From assembly GCA_963833095.1 (NCBI GenBank), contig CAWHWQ010000001.1:576001-640000 (forward strand): DNA of 64,000 bases, written 5' to 3'. Shown in pieces: positions 30,104-38,924 of this stretch (positions are counted from its first letter, which is position 1; the number at the start of each line of letters is the position of its first letter). The translations under genes and the position numbers were made by a program. The DNA comes from Vulcanimicrobiota bacterium. Its GTDB lineage: Bacteria > Vulcanimicrobiota > Vulcanimicrobiia > Vulcanimicrobiales > Vulcanimicrobiaceae. The notes under the pieces were generated by a model. The model worked only from the letters and a program-made list of their open reading frames with translations, had not been told where the DNA came from and ran no database searches.

Positions 30104-31882
30104 ATGCCGCGATTGATCGGGATCGTTCTCGTGAGCACGCTGCTCGCCGCTTGTGGTGGGGGCAGTTCAAGCGTGCTCCCCAAGGCCGGCGGCAACGCGA
30201 CCCCCTCAAAGATGAAGGTGCAGGTCTCGATCACCATGCGTGTGCCGGGCGCAGCCAGTGCGCGTAATGCCGCGCTGCGACGGCGCTTCACGATAGCGCA
30301 AAATACGGCCGGTGCACTCATCTCCGTCTACACCGCAGGCAATGACACCGGAACGCCGCTTGCGACGACCGCGGTAAACATCGAGCCCTCGCCCGCGCCG
30401 GGTTCGACCTGCACGGCGTCCGATGCGCTTGGCAATCGCTCGTGCACCTTTGATATTTCGGCGCCGGTCGGCACCGACGACTTCGCGATCACCACCTGGG
30501 ACCAGGCCCCGACTGGGGCTTCGATCCCCGTAAGCGCAAATGAACTCGGTTGGGGCCTCGATCCGTCGGTTGCGATCGTCGCCGGTGCGACCGCCAACGT
30601 GAGCGTAACGCTCTCGAGCGTGCTCGCCTCGGTCTCACTCGACCTCACGCCGGCCACGTTGCATCAGATCATTCCATCGACCGGCACGATCGGCGTCTAC
30701 GCGCTCGACGCCGACAACGACGTGATCGTGAGCAACGGCTTCGTGGATCCCAGCGGCAATCCGATTACGCTCAGCCTCAACGACGACAACAGTTTGAACG
30801 GCGCACTCTATCTCTCAACGAGCAGTATTAGCGCGCCAAGTGCAACCGGCGTCCAGTATTTCTACGCGCCGGGTAACGGCCCACTTAGTTCGAGCGGAAA
30901 TCAAACGGTCAACTTCTCGGTCAGCTCGTCGTACGACGCGGTAACAACGACCGGCGCGGCGCTGAACGCGATCTATCCGAGTTTTACGTCGATCACCGAC
31001 CCGAATCTCAGCGTCAATAACACGCATCACGGCGGCGTGGTGTTCGATACCCAAGCCGGCGTCTATTACACGACGCCGCTCAATTTCGGTGGCATATCAT
31101 ATTATAGCGGAAGCGGAAGCAGCATCACCGACAACGCCGCGGCAGTCTCGACGGCGCCGATTCTCGGCAGCATTGTAAGCGTTACTGGAGCGTTTGTCGC
31201 GATCGCAGGCAATCAAGAGCTGACATTCGGGGCGCCGCCGTCTTCCACCATCGCTCCCGGGCCGAATTCAGCCTTGATGCCGGTGCCCAACGGCAGTGCA
31301 GTCGCTTTCAACAACGGTGGAGCAATCTGGTACACGAGCGGCTCGTCGCTGATCAACTACCCGCTTTTCAGCGGCTCGCCGAGCGCGACCGGGATCGGCG
31401 TCAATACCTCGGCCGGCGTCGCCGTAGATGCGTCATCGAACGTTTGGGTTGTCGACAATGTTGACAGCCGCATCATTGAGTATCCCGGCCCCAACAACCC
31501 GCTGCAAGCGGGCGGAGCACCCTGGGACGTCCTCATCAACGCCAACGGCATCTATGTCACCGATCACGGACCGAACCCCGCGATCATTCAGCTCGATAGT
31601 AGCGGCAACATCGTCAATACGATCTCCGTTCCGGACGGCGCAGTGCCCTGGTACATGATGCCGGACAATGCGCAGCCCGGCATCGTCTGGTTCGACTATC
31701 TGCTCAACGGCCAAATCGGTATTGGCCGGATGGATACCAACACATCGCCGACAACTTTCGTGCTCGCGACCGACGTGAATGGTCCATTCGGATCGCAAGC
31801 CGGCGCGATCGGCGCCGCTTCGAACGGCTTGGTCTACCTCGTGTTCGACGGAACGTCGACGCTGGTGCAGGTGCAGCGATGA
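30104..31882 (+). CDS. Large lipoprotein with C-terminal beta-propeller (type A')
   Basis: LLAACGGG; NHL-like GVAVDASSNVWVVD. Confidence 0.8.
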   Translation: MPRLIGIVLVSTLLAACGGGSSSVLPKAGGNATPSKMKVQVSITMRVPGAASARNAALRRRFTIAQNTAGALISVYTAGNDTGTPLATTAVNIEPSPAPGSTCTASDALGNRSCTFDISAPVGTDDFAITTWDQAPTGASIPVSANELGWGLDPSVAIVAGATANVSVTLSSVLASVSLDLTPATLHQIIPSTGTIGVYALDADNDVIVSNGFVDPSGNPITLSLNDDNSLNGALYLSTSSISAPSATGVQYFYAPGNGPLSSSGNQTVNFSVSSSYDAVTTTGAALNAIYPSFTSITDPNLSVNNTHHGGVVFDTQAGVYYTTPLNFGGISYYSGSGSSITDNAAAVSTAPILGSIVSVTGAFVAIAGNQELTFGAPPSSTIAPGPNSALMPVPNGSAVAFNNGGAIWYTSGSSLINYPLFSGSPSATGIGVNTSAGVAVDASSNVWVVDNVDSRIIEYPGPNNPLQAGGAPWDVLINANGIYVTDHGPNPAIIQLDSSGNIVNTISVPDGAVPWYMMPDNAQPGIVWFDYLLNGQIGIGRMDTNTSPTTFVLATDVNGPFGSQAGAIGAASNGLVYLVFDGTSTLVQVQR

Positions 31883-33873
31883 ACGCGCGCCGCCTTGCTC
31901 CGATCATGGCATTGCTGCTCGCTGCGTGCGGCGGCGGAGGCTCGAGCGTTACGCCCGGCGCGCCGACGGGCCAACCAAACGCCAAAATGCAAAGCGTCGT
32001 GATTTCGCTCATCGTCCCCGTCAACTCGGGAACGAGCGGAGCGCGCCGCCCCGCCTACATTTCGGCCTCCGCGCAAGGCGCGGGCATCATCGTGACGCAG
32101 GGCTCGGCAACCGTCAACGCGACGCTCGACCTCTCGTCAGGCTCAAGCGCTTGTACGGGCAGCGGCAGTTCGCGCACGTGTACGACGAGCGTTACCGTGC
32201 CGATCGGCAACGACGTGTTTGCGGTGACGATCTACAATCAATCCCCGGCGAACAATGTGATTCCGGCCGGCGCCGCTATTCTCGGCGTCGGCACCAGCAT
32301 GGTCGATGTGATCGCCGGTTCGACGACCAGCGTTCCGGTGTATATCGGCGGACAAATCGCGCATTTCGGCGCGACGCTGCCGTCAGGCTCACTTCCGGGC
32401 AACGGCCACGCGCAAAGCGCGGTGCTGGTGATCGGGCCGACCGATTTCGGTAACAATCCGATCACCGCGGGAACCAGCGATCCGTATGCCAATCCGATCA
32501 CCGTTGCGGTCTCTGAGACGGGGGGCACAGGGAACGCGACGCTCTCGCTCAACGGAGGCCCCGCGAGCAGCAGCGTGCAGGTGACGAAATCAGCTGATTC
32601 CCTCGCGCTAAACTACAACGGCGGCGGCGCACCGGGCTATTCGTTCACGGTAACGCTCAGCGCGAGCGGCGTGAGCTCGCAGTCGTCGACGATCGCGCCG
32701 CTCATCGCATCGATCGGCGGTTCGGCGGTGACGAGCGTCGGCCTCAACGGCACGGTTTCGAACCTCACCCTGACCGTGGGCGAAGCGGGAAGCTCACGCA
32801 CTTACACGCCTACTCTTTCGACGTGTACCGGCATCGCGACGATCGGCGCGCTGAGCGGCAGCGGCGCATCGGCAACGCTTCCAGTCGGCGGCGGCGCGAC
32901 GCCGAGCGCGAGCGGATGCACGCTCACGATCACCGATTCGGGCAGCGTCGCATTGGTCTTGCCGGTCACGAATACGCCGGTCACCTCGGGCGTAAGCGTT
33001 AACGGCTCGACGATCTTCGAGATGTCGGGCTTCACACATCCCTACGGCATCACGAGCGGACCCGACGGAAATATCTACTTTACCGATTCGGGCACCGTCG
33101 AAGTCCTTCAGCCGAACAACTCCGTGCCGTTGGCACAATGGGTGATCACCGGAAATCTCTTTGACATTACGACCGGCTCCGACGGCGCACTTTGGATGAC
33201 CGATCAAGCAAACGGCGGCGCGGATCGGCTGACGACAACCGGTATCATCGCAAAATACCCCTTTAGCGGCACGCCGCAAGGTATAGCGCCCGGTCCGAAC
33301 GGGCTGATGTTGATCGCCGATAACACAAGCGGCGGCGTCTGGACGCTCGACACCGGCGGCCTCTTTACGATCCTTCCGTTCTCACCGTCGGGCACACCAT
33401 CGGAAGTGACGTGGGTCCCCGGCGGTGCCAACGGCGACGCGTGGTTCGCGGAGGCCAATTTCATCGGTGACTTCAGCTTGAACAACAACGCCGTGACCAC
33501 CGAACTCGGCGTACCCGACGGCGACACCGCAAACTACATCGCCTACGGGCCGGATGGCAATGTCTGGGTGACGGCATCGGGAGGCAGCGCTCCGCTTGTA
33601 CTCGTCATCAATCCATCAACCGATGCCATAACGCAGATACCTTTGGGTGTGGGCGCAACGCCCCAAGGCATTACCGCGGGCGCCGACCACGCGATGTGGT
33701 TCGTCGACCCCGGCACCAATAGCATCGGCGAAATCAACATCACGACGCACGCGGTCACAATGTTTCCCGTCCCCACGAGCAGCGCTGGGCTGCGAGAGAT
33801 CGCTAAAGGTGCCGATGGCCGGCTGTGGTTCACCGAAAATAGCGTAGGGCAGATCGGCTGGCTTATCCCTTAG
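31879..33873 (+). CDS. Lipoprotein with Vgb-like beta-propeller (type B')
   Basis: LLAACGGG; GPDGNIYF, GSDGALW and GADGRLWFTE repeats. ATGA overlap. Confidence 0.85.
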   Translation: MNARRLAPIMALLLAACGGGGSSVTPGAPTGQPNAKMQSVVISLIVPVNSGTSGARRPAYISASAQGAGIIVTQGSATVNATLDLSSGSSACTGSGSSRTCTTSVTVPIGNDVFAVTIYNQSPANNVIPAGAAILGVGTSMVDVIAGSTTSVPVYIGGQIAHFGATLPSGSLPGNGHAQSAVLVIGPTDFGNNPITAGTSDPYANPITVAVSETGGTGNATLSLNGGPASSSVQVTKSADSLALNYNGGGAPGYSFTVTLSASGVSSQSSTIAPLIASIGGSAVTSVGLNGTVSNLTLTVGEAGSSRTYTPTLSTCTGIATIGALSGSGASATLPVGGGATPSASGCTLTITDSGSVALVLPVTNTPVTSGVSVNGSTIFEMSGFTHPYGITSGPDGNIYFTDSGTVEVLQPNNSVPLAQWVITGNLFDITTGSDGALWMTDQANGGADRLTTTGIIAKYPFSGTPQGIAPGPNGLMLIADNTSGGVWTLDTGGLFTILPFSPSGTPSEVTWVPGGANGDAWFAEANFIGDFSLNNNAVTTELGVPDGDTANYIAYGPDGNVWVTASGGSAPLVLVINPSTDAITQIPLGVGATPQGITAGADHAMWFVDPGTNSIGEINITTHAVTMFPVPTSSAGLREIAKGADGRLWFTENSVGQIGWLIP

Positions 33874-34874: not shown

Positions 34875-36215
34875 ATGAATCTTCACGCCTGCCTTGCGGC
34901 CATCGTCGCAACCGTGCTCTCCTACGCGGCGCCGAGCCCCGCACCGCTCGATCCCCAGATCGCCGCGATGGTCGCCCAGGTCAGCGCCGATCGCCTGCGC
35001 GCCAACGACACCAAACTCGTCGGATTCTTTACGCGCAACGATTTTTCCGAAACGAGCTCGACGGCGACGCGCGGTGTGTTCGGTGCGCGCGATTGGATTC
35101 GCGCGCAGTTCGAAGCGATTGCAAAGACGAGTGGCGGCCGGATGACCGTGGCGCTCGACGACTACACGCAACCCAAGACGGCTCGCACGCCGCGCGCCGT
35201 CGCCGAATCGAGCATCATTGCGACGCTGCGCGGCGACGAGCCGGGGCTCATCTACGTGATGTCAAGCCATTACGACGACTGCAACGGCGACTGCACCAAC
35301 GGCACGCGTGAAGCTCCCGGAGCCGACGATAACGGGTCGGGTACGTCGGCCGTCCTCGAAGCCGCACGCATCATGGCCCCCCATCATTTTCGCGGCACGA
35401 TCATCTTCGCAGTGTTCGACGGTGAAGAGCTCGGGCTGTGGGGATCCTCGCACTACGCCGACGAGCTCAAAGCGAAAGGCGTCCCGGTTGCGGCCAATTT
35501 GAACAACGACATTATCGGGAACTCGACGGGCGGCAACGGCGTGCATGAGCCAAGCGTCATCCGCGTCTTCAGTCAGGCACTTCCCGTCGACGCTAAGCTC
35601 GCCGGCGTGAATCTCGTCGGAACCGAGAACGACTCACCCTCGCGCGAGCTTGCGCGCTTCGTGGGCGAAACGGTTCCCCCGTACATGGACGGATTCACGG
35701 TGCGCCAAATCTGGCGCGCCGATCGTTTTCTGCGCGGTGGCGATCAAGAATCGTTCCAAGCCGACGGCTATCCGGCGATCCGGTTTGTTGAGCCGAACGA
35801 AAACTTCACGCATCAGCACCAAGACGTGCGCGTTGAAAACGGCGTGCAATACGGCGATCTGCTGCAATACATCGACTTCGACTATATGGCCAAGGCAACG
35901 CAAGCCAACGTCGCTGCGCTTGCCGCGCTCGCCCTGGGTCCTCAAGCACCGCCAAACGCGCAGATGGTGCTCCAGCACCTCGGCTACGATTCGACGCTGC
36001 GCTGGAAGCCCGCGATCGGCGCCGCCTCCTACGAAATCGTCTGGCGTTCGACAACGGCGTCCGATTGGCAATACGCGGCGAACGTCGGCAACGTCACCCA
36101 GGCGACAGTTCCGGTTAGCAAAGACGACTACATCCTCGGCGTGCGCGCTATCGACGCGCACGGACATCGCAGCGTCGCGAGCTACCCGACGCCCGTGCGT
36201 GAACCTTCGAAGTAG
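34875..36215 (+). CDS. M28 family metallopeptidase
   Basis: Signal peptide; SHYD, GADDNGSG, GEELGL and NNDI. Confidence 0.9.
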   Translation: MNLHACLAAIVATVLSYAAPSPAPLDPQIAAMVAQVSADRLRANDTKLVGFFTRNDFSETSSTATRGVFGARDWIRAQFEAIAKTSGGRMTVALDDYTQPKTARTPRAVAESSIIATLRGDEPGLIYVMSSHYDDCNGDCTNGTREAPGADDNGSGTSAVLEAARIMAPHHFRGTIIFAVFDGEELGLWGSSHYADELKAKGVPVAANLNNDIIGNSTGGNGVHEPSVIRVFSQALPVDAKLAGVNLVGTENDSPSRELARFVGETVPPYMDGFTVRQIWRADRFLRGGDQESFQADGYPAIRFVEPNENFTHQHQDVRVENGVQYGDLLQYIDFDYMAKATQANVAALAALALGPQAPPNAQMVLQHLGYDSTLRWKPAIGAASYEIVWRSTTASDWQYAANVGNVTQATVPVSKDDYILGVRAIDAHGHRSVASYPTPVREPSK

Positions 36216-36220
36216 CGCTC

Positions 36221-37342
36221 CTACGTATCCGGGGCAAGGTCCGAGCCCAGCAGTAAGGTCGAACTCGTGCCGGGACGCAAGCTCGTCGAGAAGACGTGCG
36301 CGAGCGCCTGCGCGGCAGGCGAACTGCCGACCACGATGCTGGTGGCCTTTGCGGGCTGATCGATTGACGTTTGGACGTTCCAGCCGCCACCACGCAGCGC
36401 CCCGACGATCGTACGATCGAACTCGCTGTTGCCCGTCGCATTCGCGACGAGCACCTGATCTTGCGGCGGCTCTCCTTTGGCGAAAAGGAGCTTTCCTATG
36501 AGTTTCGCCCAGCGATCGTCGACGAAAACAACGGAAGCGTCGCCCACCCACCCGGCTTTGCTCGGCAGCGTAAACGCGCGAATATTATCGTCGGGCACGT
36601 CACGATACACCTCGAGCAACGCGAGTAACTGTTGGTCGCTCAGCGTCGTCTTCATGTCCTTGCGGGCGAATTGCAGAATGCGCGGCAGCTTGGCCCAGTT
36701 CTGCGGTTGGCTGAGCTGATTCATCATCAGTTTGAGGACCTGTTGTTGGCGCTTCATTCGGCCGTAGTCCGACGAGGCGTCATGGCGAAAGCGCAGATAC
36801 CCCGCCACTTGACCGCCGGTTAAATACTGCTCGCCCTTTTTCAAGTGAATGTGCAAGTCGCCGTTGTTGTCGTCGTAGTCCATCGACTCGTCGACGTCGA
36901 CGTTGAGGCCGCCCATCGCATCCACGATCTGGGCCGCGCCCTCGGGCTGCAGCGCAATAGTCGCATCGATGGGCGCACCGCCGAGCAGCTCGCTCACGAC
37001 GCGCGCGCTCATTTTCGCTCCGCCGTAAGCGTAAGCGGCGTTGGCCTTGTCATGACCGTGATTCGGGATGACCACCCAACTATCGCGCGGGATCGAGACC
37101 AATGTTGCGGTACGGCGATCGACATCGAGATGCGCAAGAATGATCGTATCGGTCGTGGCCTCGTCATCTTGGTATCCAAGAACGAGCAGATTGAGTTTGC
37201 TCGCACCGAATGCTCGATGCGAAGTTTGCACGGCCACTTCGTGGCGCACGTGGTCACCGAAGATAAAGAATCCGGCGACGACCGCCGCTGTGCCGGTGAT
37301 CGCTACAAGCGCAACGCGCTTCCAGCGTATGGTCGAAAACAT
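36221..37342 (-). CDS. LCP (LytR-CpsA-Psr) family protein with LytR C-terminal domain
   Basis: N-terminal TM; TDTIIL, SIPRD, KANAAYAYGG, YLRFRH, DYGRMKRQQQ and VLVANATG. Confidence 0.92.
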   Translation of the reverse strand: MFSTIRWKRVALVAITGTAAVVAGFFIFGDHVRHEVAVQTSHRAFGASKLNLLVLGYQDDEATTDTIILAHLDVDRRTATLVSIPRDSWVVIPNHGHDKANAAYAYGGAKMSARVVSELLGGAPIDATIALQPEGAAQIVDAMGGLNVDVDESMDYDDNNGDLHIHLKKGEQYLTGGQVAGYLRFRHDASSDYGRMKRQQQVLKLMMNQLSQPQNWAKLPRILQFARKDMKTTLSDQQLLALLEVYRDVPDDNIRAFTLPSKAGWVGDASVVFVDDRWAKLIGKLLFAKGEPPQDQVLVANATGNSEFDRTIVGALRGGGWNVQTSIDQPAKATSIVVGSSPAAQALAHVFSTSLRPGTSSTLLLGSDLAPDT

Positions 37343-37346
37343 AAAA

Positions 37347-37418
37347 ACTCCTCACGTGTGGTGTTCGCAGGAGCGTCCGTTCGCGGACGCGGGGTTATGC
37401 GAACGAAATCGGAGGAGC
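37347..37418 (-). promoter_or_regulatory. Nested mRNA hairpin sequestering the LCP Shine-Dalgarno
   Basis: Stems: CUCCUC (37412-17) with GAGGAG (37348-53); GUUCGCA (37398-404) with UGCGAAC (37363-69); GCGUCCG with CGGACGC around a CGAA loop (37373-90). Confidence 0.7.
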
Positions 37419-38009
37419 GCGATTGCCGATCCGGCATAGGACCGGAGCGCTGCGTCGCGCCCACGCCATGCCGCGGCGGCGCAGCGCGAGCGGCGAAGGA
37501 GCGTGGAGCGCGCGCGTTGCAAGCGCGCGGAAACGGCGGATTACGCAGAGTGTTGTGTGCGTACAGGTACGCGCAACGCGCGCAATGCCGTACGCGACGG
37601 CAACACCGACGAGCCCGTGGGCGAGCATGCTAAACCAAATCGGGCCGCCAAGCCAAATCGTGCTGCCAAGCGTGTGACCCGTTACGATGACCTGCTCGGT
37701 CGTCTCCATCGCATAGAGCACGACGAGCTGCAGCGCAAGGATGAACGGAAGCAGTCGTCCCACGTGGGTGCGCAGCGCTTCGCGGGAGGCTCGTAGCAGT
37801 TCTCGACGGATGCGCAGCGCCAGATAGCACGCGACCAGGATCGCACCGCACAAAAGCGTCGGCAGCACATCCAAGCTCGAGCGATCGGTGAACACTCCGT
37901 GCCCGAACCAGCCCGCATTCGAGGCGGCTTCGACCAGCGGGTCGGCGATCGCGGCGGCAATCACCGCCGACGCAACGCAGAACCAGAATCGAATGGAACC
38001 GTGCCTCAC
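37395..38009 (-). CDS. Multi-TM membrane protein with C-terminal RAPP motif (candidate arrest peptide)
   Basis: About four hydrophobic segments and a basic tail ending RIGNRAPPISFA. TATAAT lies 7 nt before the GTG. Confidence 0.75.
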   Translation of the reverse strand: MRHGSIRFWFCVASAVIAAAIADPLVEAASNAGWFGHGVFTDRSSLDVLPTLLCGAILVACYLALRIRRELLRASREALRTHVGRLLPFILALQLVVLYAMETTEQVIVTGHTLGSTIWLGGPIWFSMLAHGLVGVAVAYGIARVARTCTHTTLCVIRRFRALATRALHAPSPLALRRRGMAWARRSAPVLCRIGNRAPPISFA

Positions 38010-38060
38010 AGGGGCGATTATACCCTTAGATTCTGAAAATCCGCACAAACCTATCCAGCA

Positions 38061-38153
38061 GACGAGGATCGCCTTCGAAACATCACGATCGGTCTTTTTC
38101 GTGATCCCGAGGGCCGCACCATCGGCCTGGTGGATCCGGGCGCCGCGATGTAA
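38061..38153 (+). pseudogene. Startless 3' remnant of a VOC/glyoxalase gene
   Basis: Reads ...ITIGLFRDPEGRTIGLVDPGAAM*. FxDPEGxxIGL is the typical VOC C-terminus. There is an in-frame stop upstream and no ATG/GTG/TTG before the motif. Confidence 0.5.
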
Positions 38154-38156
38154 CGG

Positions 38157-38195
38157 AGAAGGCCGGCTAGATCCTCTAGCCGGCCTTCTTCTTTT
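38157..38195 (+). terminator. Intrinsic terminator (possibly bidirectional)
   Basis: AGAAGGCCGGCTAG-ATCCT-CTAGCCGGCCTTCT followed by TCTTTT. Confidence 0.85.
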
Positions 38196-38210
38196 CTTAG
38201 AACCGTTTAG

Positions 38211-38822
38211 CTAGAAGCGGGGCGGGCGGCCGTTGGAGCGGCGCTCGCCGCGCGGATAGTAGCCGCCGCGCGACGCCGGTGCGACGTACGTGCGACCGCG
38301 ATAGGTGCCACCGCGATATATGGTATTTACGCGCACGTTGTTGTACACGCGCGCGTTACCGACGTAATGGTAGCCGCCGGTCGCGAAGTAGCCGCCATGC
38401 CACCAGCCGGTGTTGCCGAAGAAAAAGCCCAGGCTGATCGAGGGCCCGTAGAAGCTCCATGGATGTCCGGCGTAGTAAGGCACGCCTGCGTAATACGTGT
38501 AGGGCGTGTCCACCTCATTAGCGGCGAAGTACGGTCCTTCGTTGTAGCCGAGGATGCTGACGACCATGCCCGGTGCGAGCGTAAGGCCGGTCGGATTGAT
38601 GATCGTGCCGTCGTGCAACTGCACGTTGTCGGCGTATCCACGATCGTCTTGAACGATAAGGTTGTAACCGCCGTCAAAGCTCGAGATGCGCCCTTGAATC
38701 TGTCCGTCCTCGGCAACCGGCGGTCCGGCCGGCTGGGCATACGACGGGGCATCTTGCGCGAGCGCGACCGTTGGGGTTATAAAAGCGAGTGCCGCAAGCG
38801 CGGCGAGCAATTTAATGTGCAT
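38211..38822 (-). CDS. Secreted hypothetical protein with Gly/Tyr/Arg-rich tail
   Basis: Signal peptide ending ALA-Q; OB-like core with GTIINPTG. Confidence 0.75.
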   Translation of the reverse strand: MHIKLLAALAALAFITPTVALAQDAPSYAQPAGPPVAEDGQIQGRISSFDGGYNLIVQDDRGYADNVQLHDGTIINPTGLTLAPGMVVSILGYNEGPYFAANEVDTPYTYYAGVPYYAGHPWSFYGPSISLGFFFGNTGWWHGGYFATGGYHYVGNARVYNNVRVNTIYRGGTYRGRTYVAPASRGGYYPRGERRSNGRPPRF

Positions 38823-38924
38823 ACAGTCCAGAAACGTACCCCGCTTTCCTACCGATGCCACATTGCCCCACTCTCGCCGAATTCTAATCAGTTAACCAAG
38901 CTATGGCATACTCCGTTGCCCCAG

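Follow-up and report, generated by a model that had tools for sequence, protein, structure and literature searches.

In the SecM system, the Shine-Dalgarno (SD) sequence of the downstream gene is masked by mRNA structure, and in Bacillus subtilis the membrane-anchored leader MifM undergoes a stall that unfolds the hairpin covering the downstream SD and that is relieved by membrane insertion. A wider class of leaders was described by Fujiwara et al. (EMBO J, December 2025; PMC12992588), who report that RAPP and RGPP motifs cluster near the C-termini of small secreted or membrane proteins encoded upstream of genes with many functions. According to that paper, RAPP and RGPP cause the most robust arrest, which resists EF-P, and both motifs are depleted in proteomes; ribosomes stall on RAPP or RAPG with the codon of the third residue in the P site and that of the fourth in the A site; seven Streptomyces lividans proteins arrest in a motif-dependent manner, and the four of them that have four transmembrane (TM) segments do so in vitro and in vivo. 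In Rhodobacter capsulatus, stalling on CutF is described in a preprint as melting a stem-loop over the ribosome-binding site of cutO. Here, we analyzed 64,000 nucleotides (nt) of a Vulcanimicrobiota bacterium (positions 576,001 to 640,000 of contig CAWHWQ010000001.1, assembly GCA_963833095.1; referred to below as the window and numbered from its first letter), in which minus-strand positions 36221 to 38048 hold two co-oriented genes: a leader ending close after a RAPP motif and a gene of the LCP (LytR-CpsA-Psr) family.

Judging from sequence, we put the probability at roughly 0.7 that the leader is a RAPP-type ribosome arrest peptide within an operon made up of these two genes. Conservation of the motif, of the spacer length, of the gene order, and of the RNA pairing, each shown by computation, carries this reading. 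An earlier annotation of the same DNA (the original prediction) had pointed to the locus; its 204-amino-acid (aa) leader with a terminal RAPP, the 52-nt gap between the leader stop codon and the LCP ATG, and all its coordinates proved exact to the base (Table 1). The open reading frame (ORF) translation of the leader ends ...APVLCRIGNRAPPISFA. An alternative in-frame TTG start at position 38048 would give 217 aa, and the majority of homologues have 204. Assignment of the downstream gene to the LCP family also stands: its product matches Pfam LytR_cpsA_psr (E = 1.1e-39; 136.5 bits against a gathering cutoff of 24.6; profile positions 2-149 of 150) and, as a second family, LytR_C (1.3e-6; 29.7 bits).

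Table 1. Features of the leader-LCP locus (window coordinates; P1 to P3 are helices of the predicted minimum free energy fold)
Feature	Coordinates	Strand	Remarks
Leader gene	37395..38009	-	GTG start, 204 aa, stop TAA 37397-37395; predicted four-helix membrane protein ending CRIGNRAPPISFA before the stop
LCP (LytR-CpsA-Psr) gene	36221..37342	-	ATG 37342, 373 aa, N-terminal membrane anchor
Four-helix membrane domain, presumed sensor/force-generating part	37503..38009	-	residues 1-169
Disordered, poorly conserved spacer of conserved length	37449..37502	-	residues 170-187, pLDDT 55-61
Conserved arrest block APVLCRIGNRAPP	37410..37448	-	residues 188-200; RAPP (residues 197-200 of 204), codons CGC GCT CCT CCG, 37421-37410
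P1 5' arm, anti-SD GCUCCUCCG (Ala-Pro-Pro codons)	37410..37418	-	predicted fold
P1 3' arm, including LCP SD GAGGAG (37348-37353)	37347..37356	-	predicted fold
P2 5' arm GUUCGCA, final leader codons	37398..37404	-	pairs with 37363-37369
P2 3' arm UGCGAAC	37363..37369	-	exact complement of 37398-37404
P3 hairpin, G+C-rich, 7 bp perfect, CGAA loop	37373..37390	-	directly after leader stop
Candidate -10 box TATAAT	38017..38022	-	7 nt 5' of leader GTG; lead only

The leader matches no Pfam family at E ≤ 0.01, and it has its own family of homologues: 173 were found by database search and 405 by searching a profile of the family against 1.84 billion cluster representatives (E ≤ 1e-3 in both cases). 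An alignment of 51 diverse members was the basis of the residue conservation calls and of an AlphaFold2 model (predicted local distance difference test [pLDDT] score, 82.5; predicted template modeling [pTM] score, 0.73), in which helices span residues 3-31, 48-72, 83-110, and 124-169 and residues 170-204 form a disordered tail. Together with the hydrophobicity read off the sequence, these helices support a membrane protein with four predicted TM segments, in keeping with the multi-TM protein originally proposed. Its charge distribution suggests that both termini lie on the inside, since the Arg-rich parts are the N-terminus, the loop at 68-87, and the tail, and the loops at 28-47 and 109-122 are not Arg-rich. 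A Foldseek comparison of the model with the PDB returned no match at E ≤ 0.001. Nine body residues are invariant in the 51 aligned sequences (E27, D42, P50, Q94, E105, Q106, G115, W119, and P123), and H131, G195, R197, A198, P199, and P200 are at least 90% conserved. The original prediction had drawn attention to several His residues as possible ligand contacts; of these, only H131 reaches 90% conservation, and the invariant polar positions are instead E27, D42, Q94, E105, and Q106.

Conservation of the tail is concentrated at its end. The 25 residues that precede the block xPVLCRIGxRAPP vary freely in the alignment of 51, and the distance across them is fixed: from the TM4 marker W[LIVM]G[GA]P (here WLGGP) to the Arg of the motif there are 76 to 80 residues in 252 of the 256 proteins that have both. 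The original prediction placed RAPP about 50 residues after the last TM segment. This holds if TM4 ends near residue 146, and does not hold for the modeled fourth helix, which runs to residue 169 and ends 30 residues ahead of the stall site. As for the register of the stall, analogy with ApcA, ApdA, ApdP, and CruR predicts that CCT (37413-37415) would occupy the P site and CCG (37410-37412) the A site.

The original prediction proposed that the terminal RAPP or RGPP, the downstream gene, and the stems be compared among homologues, and each comparison came out in its favor. RAPP or RGPP occurs within the last 30 residues of 116 of the 120 closest homologues (RAPP in 114, RGPP in 2), with exactly four residues after PP in 101 of those 116; the four exceptions are two proteins with RAPP and a longer extension and two tail-less proteins. 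Among 149 more distant representatives, taken at the 50% identity level, 138 have R[AGSP]PP within their last 20 residues (111 RAPP, 23 RGPP, 3 RSPP, and 1 RPPP), followed by 1 to 12 residues with modes at 4 and 6, and the remaining 11 look like fragments, frameshifts, or tail-less forms. A further, paralogous subfamily of about 160 aa ends right after helix 4 and keeps the domain without the tail. One such paralogue lies outside the window at G000:C1:282091-282648 (L031); together with L032 to L038, it encodes about 160 to 195 aa without RAPP and is 52 to 64% identical over the four-helix domain. In several genomes, these tail-less paralogues are followed by a second long in-frame ORF on the 3' side, sometimes past one stop codon, and these downstream ORFs gave no Pfam match. 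Searching the window's genome in six frames for a C-terminal R[AG]PP yielded 20 frames, and the control A[AG]PP 27; in this G+C-rich genome the count is too noisy to put a number on such leaders, and the only clear one is the present leader.

We next turn to the mRNA. The minimum free energy (MFE) fold of minus-strand positions 37330-37430 is a nested three-tier structure of P1, P2, and P3 at -34.8 kcal/mol, compared with -24.3 ± 3.2 kcal/mol for 200 shuffled sequences (z = -3.3; none of the shuffles was as stable). This fold is precisely the one claimed before, with the Ala-Pro-Pro codons paired to the LCP SD and two further 7-bp stems nested inside. In an alignment of 13 congeneric loci, including that of the window (L001), RNAalifold recovered P1 and P2; 98.1% of the paired cells were complementary, compared with 40 to 46% when the 3' partners were slid by one to three columns. 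The six aligned pairs of P1 were formed in 13/13 congeners with invariant sequence, three of the six aligned pairs of P2 showed compensatory changes (UA to CG, CG to UA, and GC to AU), and at the position of P3 a G+C-rich hairpin of differing sequence was present in 12/13 congeners, L002 being without one. The original prediction also included a second anti-SD, CUCCU at 37369-37373, that would permit an alternative fold. Since CUCCU at this position is restricted to L001 among the 13 congeners, we reject this alternative fold as a conserved feature.

Codon choice within the motif is unusual. The Ala-Pro of RAPP is written GCT CCT in all 13 congeners, and the codons flanking it vary synonymously. 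In the long ORFs of the window's genome, GCT and CCT account for 9.6% of Ala and 7.2% of Pro codons, respectively, and GCT CCT is used in 1 of 116 Ala-Pro(-Pro) cases. In distant loci, the anti-SD is shifted to the codons just past PP, and its sequence tracks the local SD: the tail-SD pairs are CUCCUUCA with UGAAGGAG at L030, AUACCUGUUC with GAACAGGUAU at L024, and GUCCUCCA with UGGAGGAC at L078, and tail and SD match over 12 bp at L079 and over 11 bp, including one wobble, at L059. Covariation is seen both in the compensatory changes of P2 and in the anti-SD:SD pairing from locus to locus.

Pairing was quantified between the leader tail and the SD region; RNAduplex, when given the tail and 160 nt of downstream sequence, returned long and untidy duplexes. 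Tails paired with their own SD at -16.2 kcal/mol in 26 loci, compared with -12.9 ± 0.49 kcal/mol when SDs were permuted (0 of 20,000 permutations), and at -16.4 compared with -12.9 ± 0.39 kcal/mol in 46 nonredundant loci (0 of 20,000), where the median rank of the own SD was 7 of 46. When tails were recoded synonymously according to genomic codon usage, the real codons beat 90% of the recodings in 21 of 38 loci. Scanning 12-nt partners over the last 180 nt of the leader plus the gap (195 to 471 windows per locus) showed that in 33 of 52 loci the SD's best partner begins between -9 and +12 nt relative to the codon predicted for the P site, with about 9% expected if partners were uniformly distributed. 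Finally, we modeled a stalled ribosome in the partition function by blocking nt -12 to +15 around the P site, with a ribosome 30 nt upstream as the control. In the window, the modeled probability that the SD is unpaired was 0.01 in free mRNA, 0.43 with the ribosome at RAPP, and 0.01 with the upstream control, as expected if a ribosome at RAPP covers the anti-SD and frees the LCP SD in the way originally proposed. Across 51 loci, the corresponding means were 0.12, 0.30, and 0.14, and SD accessibility rose by at least 0.2 in 23 of the 51 with the ribosome at RAPP compared with 3 with the control.

The family was found in one lineage only. Source names of the homologues include Candidatus Baltobacteraceae and Candidatus Aquilonibacter, both of which NCBI taxonomy places in the Vulcanimicrobiaceae, phylum Vulcanimicrobiota (formerly Eremiobacterota). 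A leader match was found in 42 of 61 genomes of relatives (a tally that includes the unpublished genome G025, which enters no other result) and in 91 of 251 genomes in a phylum-wide search. Leader-positive genomes fall in three related families (78/160, 2/3, and 10/18), and none was found among the 69 genomes searched from the other 18 families of the phylum. Among ESM Atlas neighbors of the leader, two Actinomycetota clusters are among the nearest (score, 0.96), and we treat them as no more than a lead to a possible link with the four-TM leaders of S. lividans.

Within this lineage, the leader and the LCP gene stay together. An LCP gene lies directly 3' of the leader in 27 of the 30 best loci; two of the three exceptions are at a contig edge, and the third, L030, has a gene for a CarboxypepD_reg-domain protein instead. 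Adjacency is kept even where LCP identity to the window's LCP falls to 27 to 32%, so the association is an old one. In the phylum-wide search, an LCP orthologue (54 to 72% identity) is the downstream ORF at 14 of the 17 top loci for which one was assigned; at three more loci (L063, L065, and L069) an orthologue lies further downstream, and at L074 one follows an intervening ORF. Of five leader-less genomes searched for this LCP, four had no match at E ≤ 1e-30, one of them from the same genus and 95% complete, and the fifth had only LCPs of 34 to 39% identity. Because the two genes are adjacent and are lost together, the leader and this LCP travel as a module.

Second and third copies of the leader in the same genomes stand before other genes. 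Six precede genes for proteins with a CarboxypepD_reg domain and a TonB-dependent-receptor barrel (L040, L042, L043, L045, L046, and L047), and at L041 and L049 only the CarboxypepD_reg domain was found within the stretch fetched; these eight loci and L030 make up the TonB-receptor-like group. Others lie 301 nt ahead of a phosphoesterase-family gene (L039) and before genes for a DUF1007 protein (L044, with RGPP), a distant LCP (L048, with RGPP), and a cytochrome c protein (L050, with RPPP). Judged by gene order, this kind of leader serves as a front module that is reused for envelope genes. At L039/L060 (G057:C38), the tail is RAPPLLVS, and the gap contains a short basic ORF preceded by the tail's complement, CGAGGAG, so the switch may there act on the intervening small gene. 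At L041 (G028:C3:113000-118500), two or three tandem leader copies, one of them seemingly split, lie beside the CarboxypepD_reg protein, suggesting local duplication and decay of the module.

Taken together, these results fit the following mechanism. In free mRNA, the LCP SD would be locked by P1, in which it pairs with the Ala-Pro-Pro codons, by P2 between the last leader codons and the intergenic region, and by the P3 hairpin. A ribosome translating the leader would reach R-A-P with Pro-tRNA in the A site and stall there, as ribosomes do in the published RAPP systems. Its footprint (about -12 to +15 nt) would then cover the anti-SD and most of P2, the SD would be freed, and a second ribosome could start on the LCP gene for as long as the stall lasts. 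At that point, a spacer of about 30 residues would fill the exit tunnel, and the whole four-helix domain would just have emerged. Insertion or folding of this domain, possibly dependent on a ligand bound by the conserved polar residues, may pull on the chain and set the duration of the stall and thereby the amount of LCP; such control by force or ligand could work in either direction, the signal raising or lowering LCP. A bolder version, which we regard as possible but doubtful, is that the four-helix domain is a co-translational membrane sensor that reads an envelope signal during the RAPP stall and converts it into pulling force, the module having been copied before LCP, TonB-receptor-like, phosphoesterase, DUF1007, and cytochrome c genes in one Vulcanimicrobiota lineage. 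This version builds on a conserved intramembrane polar cluster (E27, E105, Q106, and H131) and a conserved outer loop; equally tentatively, the signal might be a metal ion, the proton gradient, or a lipid carrier.

Several observations weigh against a regulatory stall. Since P1 is invariant in the genus, column covariation rests on P2 only. Within the genus, a tail pairs no better with its own SD than with those of others because the 13 SDs are nearly identical, so the test has power only between subfamilies. Baseline pairing with foreign SDs is already -12.9 kcal/mol, because Pro-Pro and Leu codons resemble an anti-SD by nature; and since the loci are related and not independent samples, the counts of 0 in 20,000 permutations are no true probability. 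Real codons pair worse than half of the recodings in 6 of 38 loci, the SD's best partner lies elsewhere than the stall site in 19 of 52, some downstream starts come from a rule-based assignment that may be in error, and the model exposes the SD only in part during the stall (0.43 in the window). Of the sequencing runs on record, those listed as containing the leader-LCP region are six DNA runs from three studies, and none is RNA. RAPP arrest is ribosome dependent, and our proposal carries it over from the ribosomes of other phyla; S. lividans RAPP peptides arrested weakly with Escherichia coli ribosomes (PMC12992588). Lastly, any ribosome finishing the leader would briefly open P1 and P2, and simple coupling needs no stall.

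Plain translational coupling of this kind would make the leader an ordinary membrane protein, perhaps a partner of LCP, with the stem serving only to tie LCP translation in time and place to that of the leader and with RAPP kept for a role of the finished protein such as a binding motif. The fold accommodates it, given that any ribosome reading the last leader codons would open both helices; the four-helix domain is so strongly conserved (nine invariant residues) that it surely has a function of its own; and the leader and this LCP orthologue were gained or lost together. We nevertheless consider coupling unlikely. The same tail stands before unrelated genes (TonB-like, phosphoesterase, DUF1007, and cytochrome c), which argues against an LCP-specific partner motif, and the only motif often seen in place of RAPP is RGPP, likewise a strong arrest core. 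Moreover, the motif is always 1 to 12 residues from the stop codon, and the spacer keeps a length of 78 ± 2 residues as its sequence drifts, which fits a tunnel-length constraint better than a binding site, and the tail-less paralogues retain the domain. A constitutive stall, occurring at RAPP every time and sensing nothing, would instead boost or localize expression by keeping the mRNA at the membrane with the SD open for a fixed time, so that LCP is made there in a set ratio. All downstream products are exported or membrane proteins, LCP itself being membrane anchored, the ligand site in the leader is only a candidate, and leaders before different genes share invariant residues, which argues against gene-specific signals. 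Known RAPP systems are, however, described as regulated (copper acts on CruR and CutF, secretion on ApdA and ApdP), and a mere anchor would not need the polar cluster of E27, E105, Q106, and H131 or the conserved loop 1, making a constitutive stall quite improbable. Least credible is a role of the hairpins in transcription, as an intergenic terminator or attenuator, in place of a translational switch. A G+C-rich hairpin does stand straight after the stop codon in 12/13 congeners, but the conserved pairing involves the SD itself and moves with the SD sequence from locus to locus. We rejected P3 as a terminator since the sequence has no U-tract after it and the terminator scan lists nothing there.

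Compared with described systems, the leader differs from MifM, which has a non-RAPP arrest sequence, a single TM segment, and yidC2 as its target. With SecM, ApdA, ApdP, and ApcA it shares the R-A-(P/G)-P core near the stop codon and, by prediction, the stall on Pro codons in the P and A sites; unlike in those systems, its downstream gene is not a protein localization component, and its N-terminal part is a conserved, folded membrane domain by prediction, not a simple signal or anchor. A Sec/YidC-monitoring substrate of the SecM, MifM, VemP, ApdA, or ApdP type is not what we found, the downstream genes being LCP or TonB-like, phosphoesterase, DUF1007, or cytochrome c genes. CutF and CruR are likewise exported leaders with a C-terminal Pro-rich or RAPP stall, as predicted here, and CruR of Bordetella pertussis controls a TonB-dependent receptor, a target kind that paralogues of the present family also precede. 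As far as these systems have been described, they have a signal peptide and a periplasmic Cys/His domain, unlike the four predicted TM helices of the present leader, which also lacks a CXXC-type motif and precedes an LCP gene. Membership in DUF2946, the family of CruR and CutF, was rejected, as the leader has no Pfam match, four predicted TM helices, and no Cys/His metal motif.

The closest likeness is to the RAPP/RGPP leaders of PMC12992588. Like them, the present protein is shorter than 300 aa, has predicted TM segments N-terminal of a RAPP that lies a few residues from the C-terminus, and precedes a co-oriented gene unrelated to Sec/YidC, whose SD is masked in a predicted structure that a stalled ribosome would open; like their four-TM members, it is conserved in the region after TM4. 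It differs in its LCP target, in its Vulcanimicrobiota lineage, and in being known from sequence alone. In the list of upstream ORFs given there, eight SecD-upstream proteins end ...PLGERAPPxTSGS, with GERAPP followed by four to five residues; this GERAPP hexapeptide recurs, about as far from the stop codon, in the majority of the leaders studied here. The top-30 RAPP targets of that paper are led by TonB-dependent receptors, PCu(A)C, SecD, and PepSY and have no LCP entry, and the part of its supplements that was searched contained neither LCP nor motif strings of the present family, although the full lists may hold cases. Full-text literature searches returned nothing relevant linking LytR-CpsA-Psr with arrest peptides or Eremiobacterota with RAPP. 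The novelty claimed in the original prediction is to be tempered, since TM-containing RAPP/RGPP leaders before diverse genes have been published, LCP being absent from that top-30 list. Very probably, the leader represents a new, lineage-restricted family of this published kind of regulator with a new class of target, LCP.

The surroundings of the locus offer a few leads on its expression. TATAAT occurs at the same spacing before the leader GTG in L001 to L006 and TACAAT in L011, with a conserved block upstream (GGATTTTCAG...), and a consensus promoter scan of 36000-38400 found no full sigma-70 site. If the TATAAT 7 nt before the GTG is a -10 box, the operon mRNA would be leaderless, and it may start at the GTG itself. 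At 38155-38191, a 17-bp hairpin with a T-run (plus strand) lies just past the stop codon of the minus-strand gene 38211-38861 and may be a bidirectional terminator insulating the leader-LCP operon; that gene encodes 216 aa with a signal-like N-terminus, a Gly/Tyr-rich C-terminal half (GGY-type repeats), and no Pfam family. Two plus-strand genes nearby have no apparent tie to the leader-LCP pair: 34875-36215, convergent with the LCP gene, encodes an M28 peptidase (Pfam, 1.3e-23), and 31879-33873 encodes a repeat-containing, lipoprotein-like protein of 664 aa.

LCP enzymes link glycopolymers such as teichoic acids and capsules to the cell wall, and to our knowledge little is established about how their amount is set. 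Control of LCP by a nascent-chain stall was not found in the literature searched or in the top-30 list of PMC12992588. The interest of the locus lies in this LCP link, in the modular reuse of the leader, and in the unusually clear sequence evidence. With one predicted sensor-plus-arrest module reused before at least five kinds of envelope genes, and with an anti-SD written in or just after the stall codons that changes in step with the SD of each gene, the family offers an unusually clean natural data set and extends what has been published on RAPP leaders to an almost uncultured phylum. Its fixed 78-residue spacing provides a handle on how folding or insertion of a multihelix membrane domain may tune a ribosomal stall. 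If the four-helix domain is indeed a sensor, nascent chains would run an envelope regulon at the post-transcriptional level, and this would be the first case known in which the attachment of glycopolymers to the wall is under translational control.

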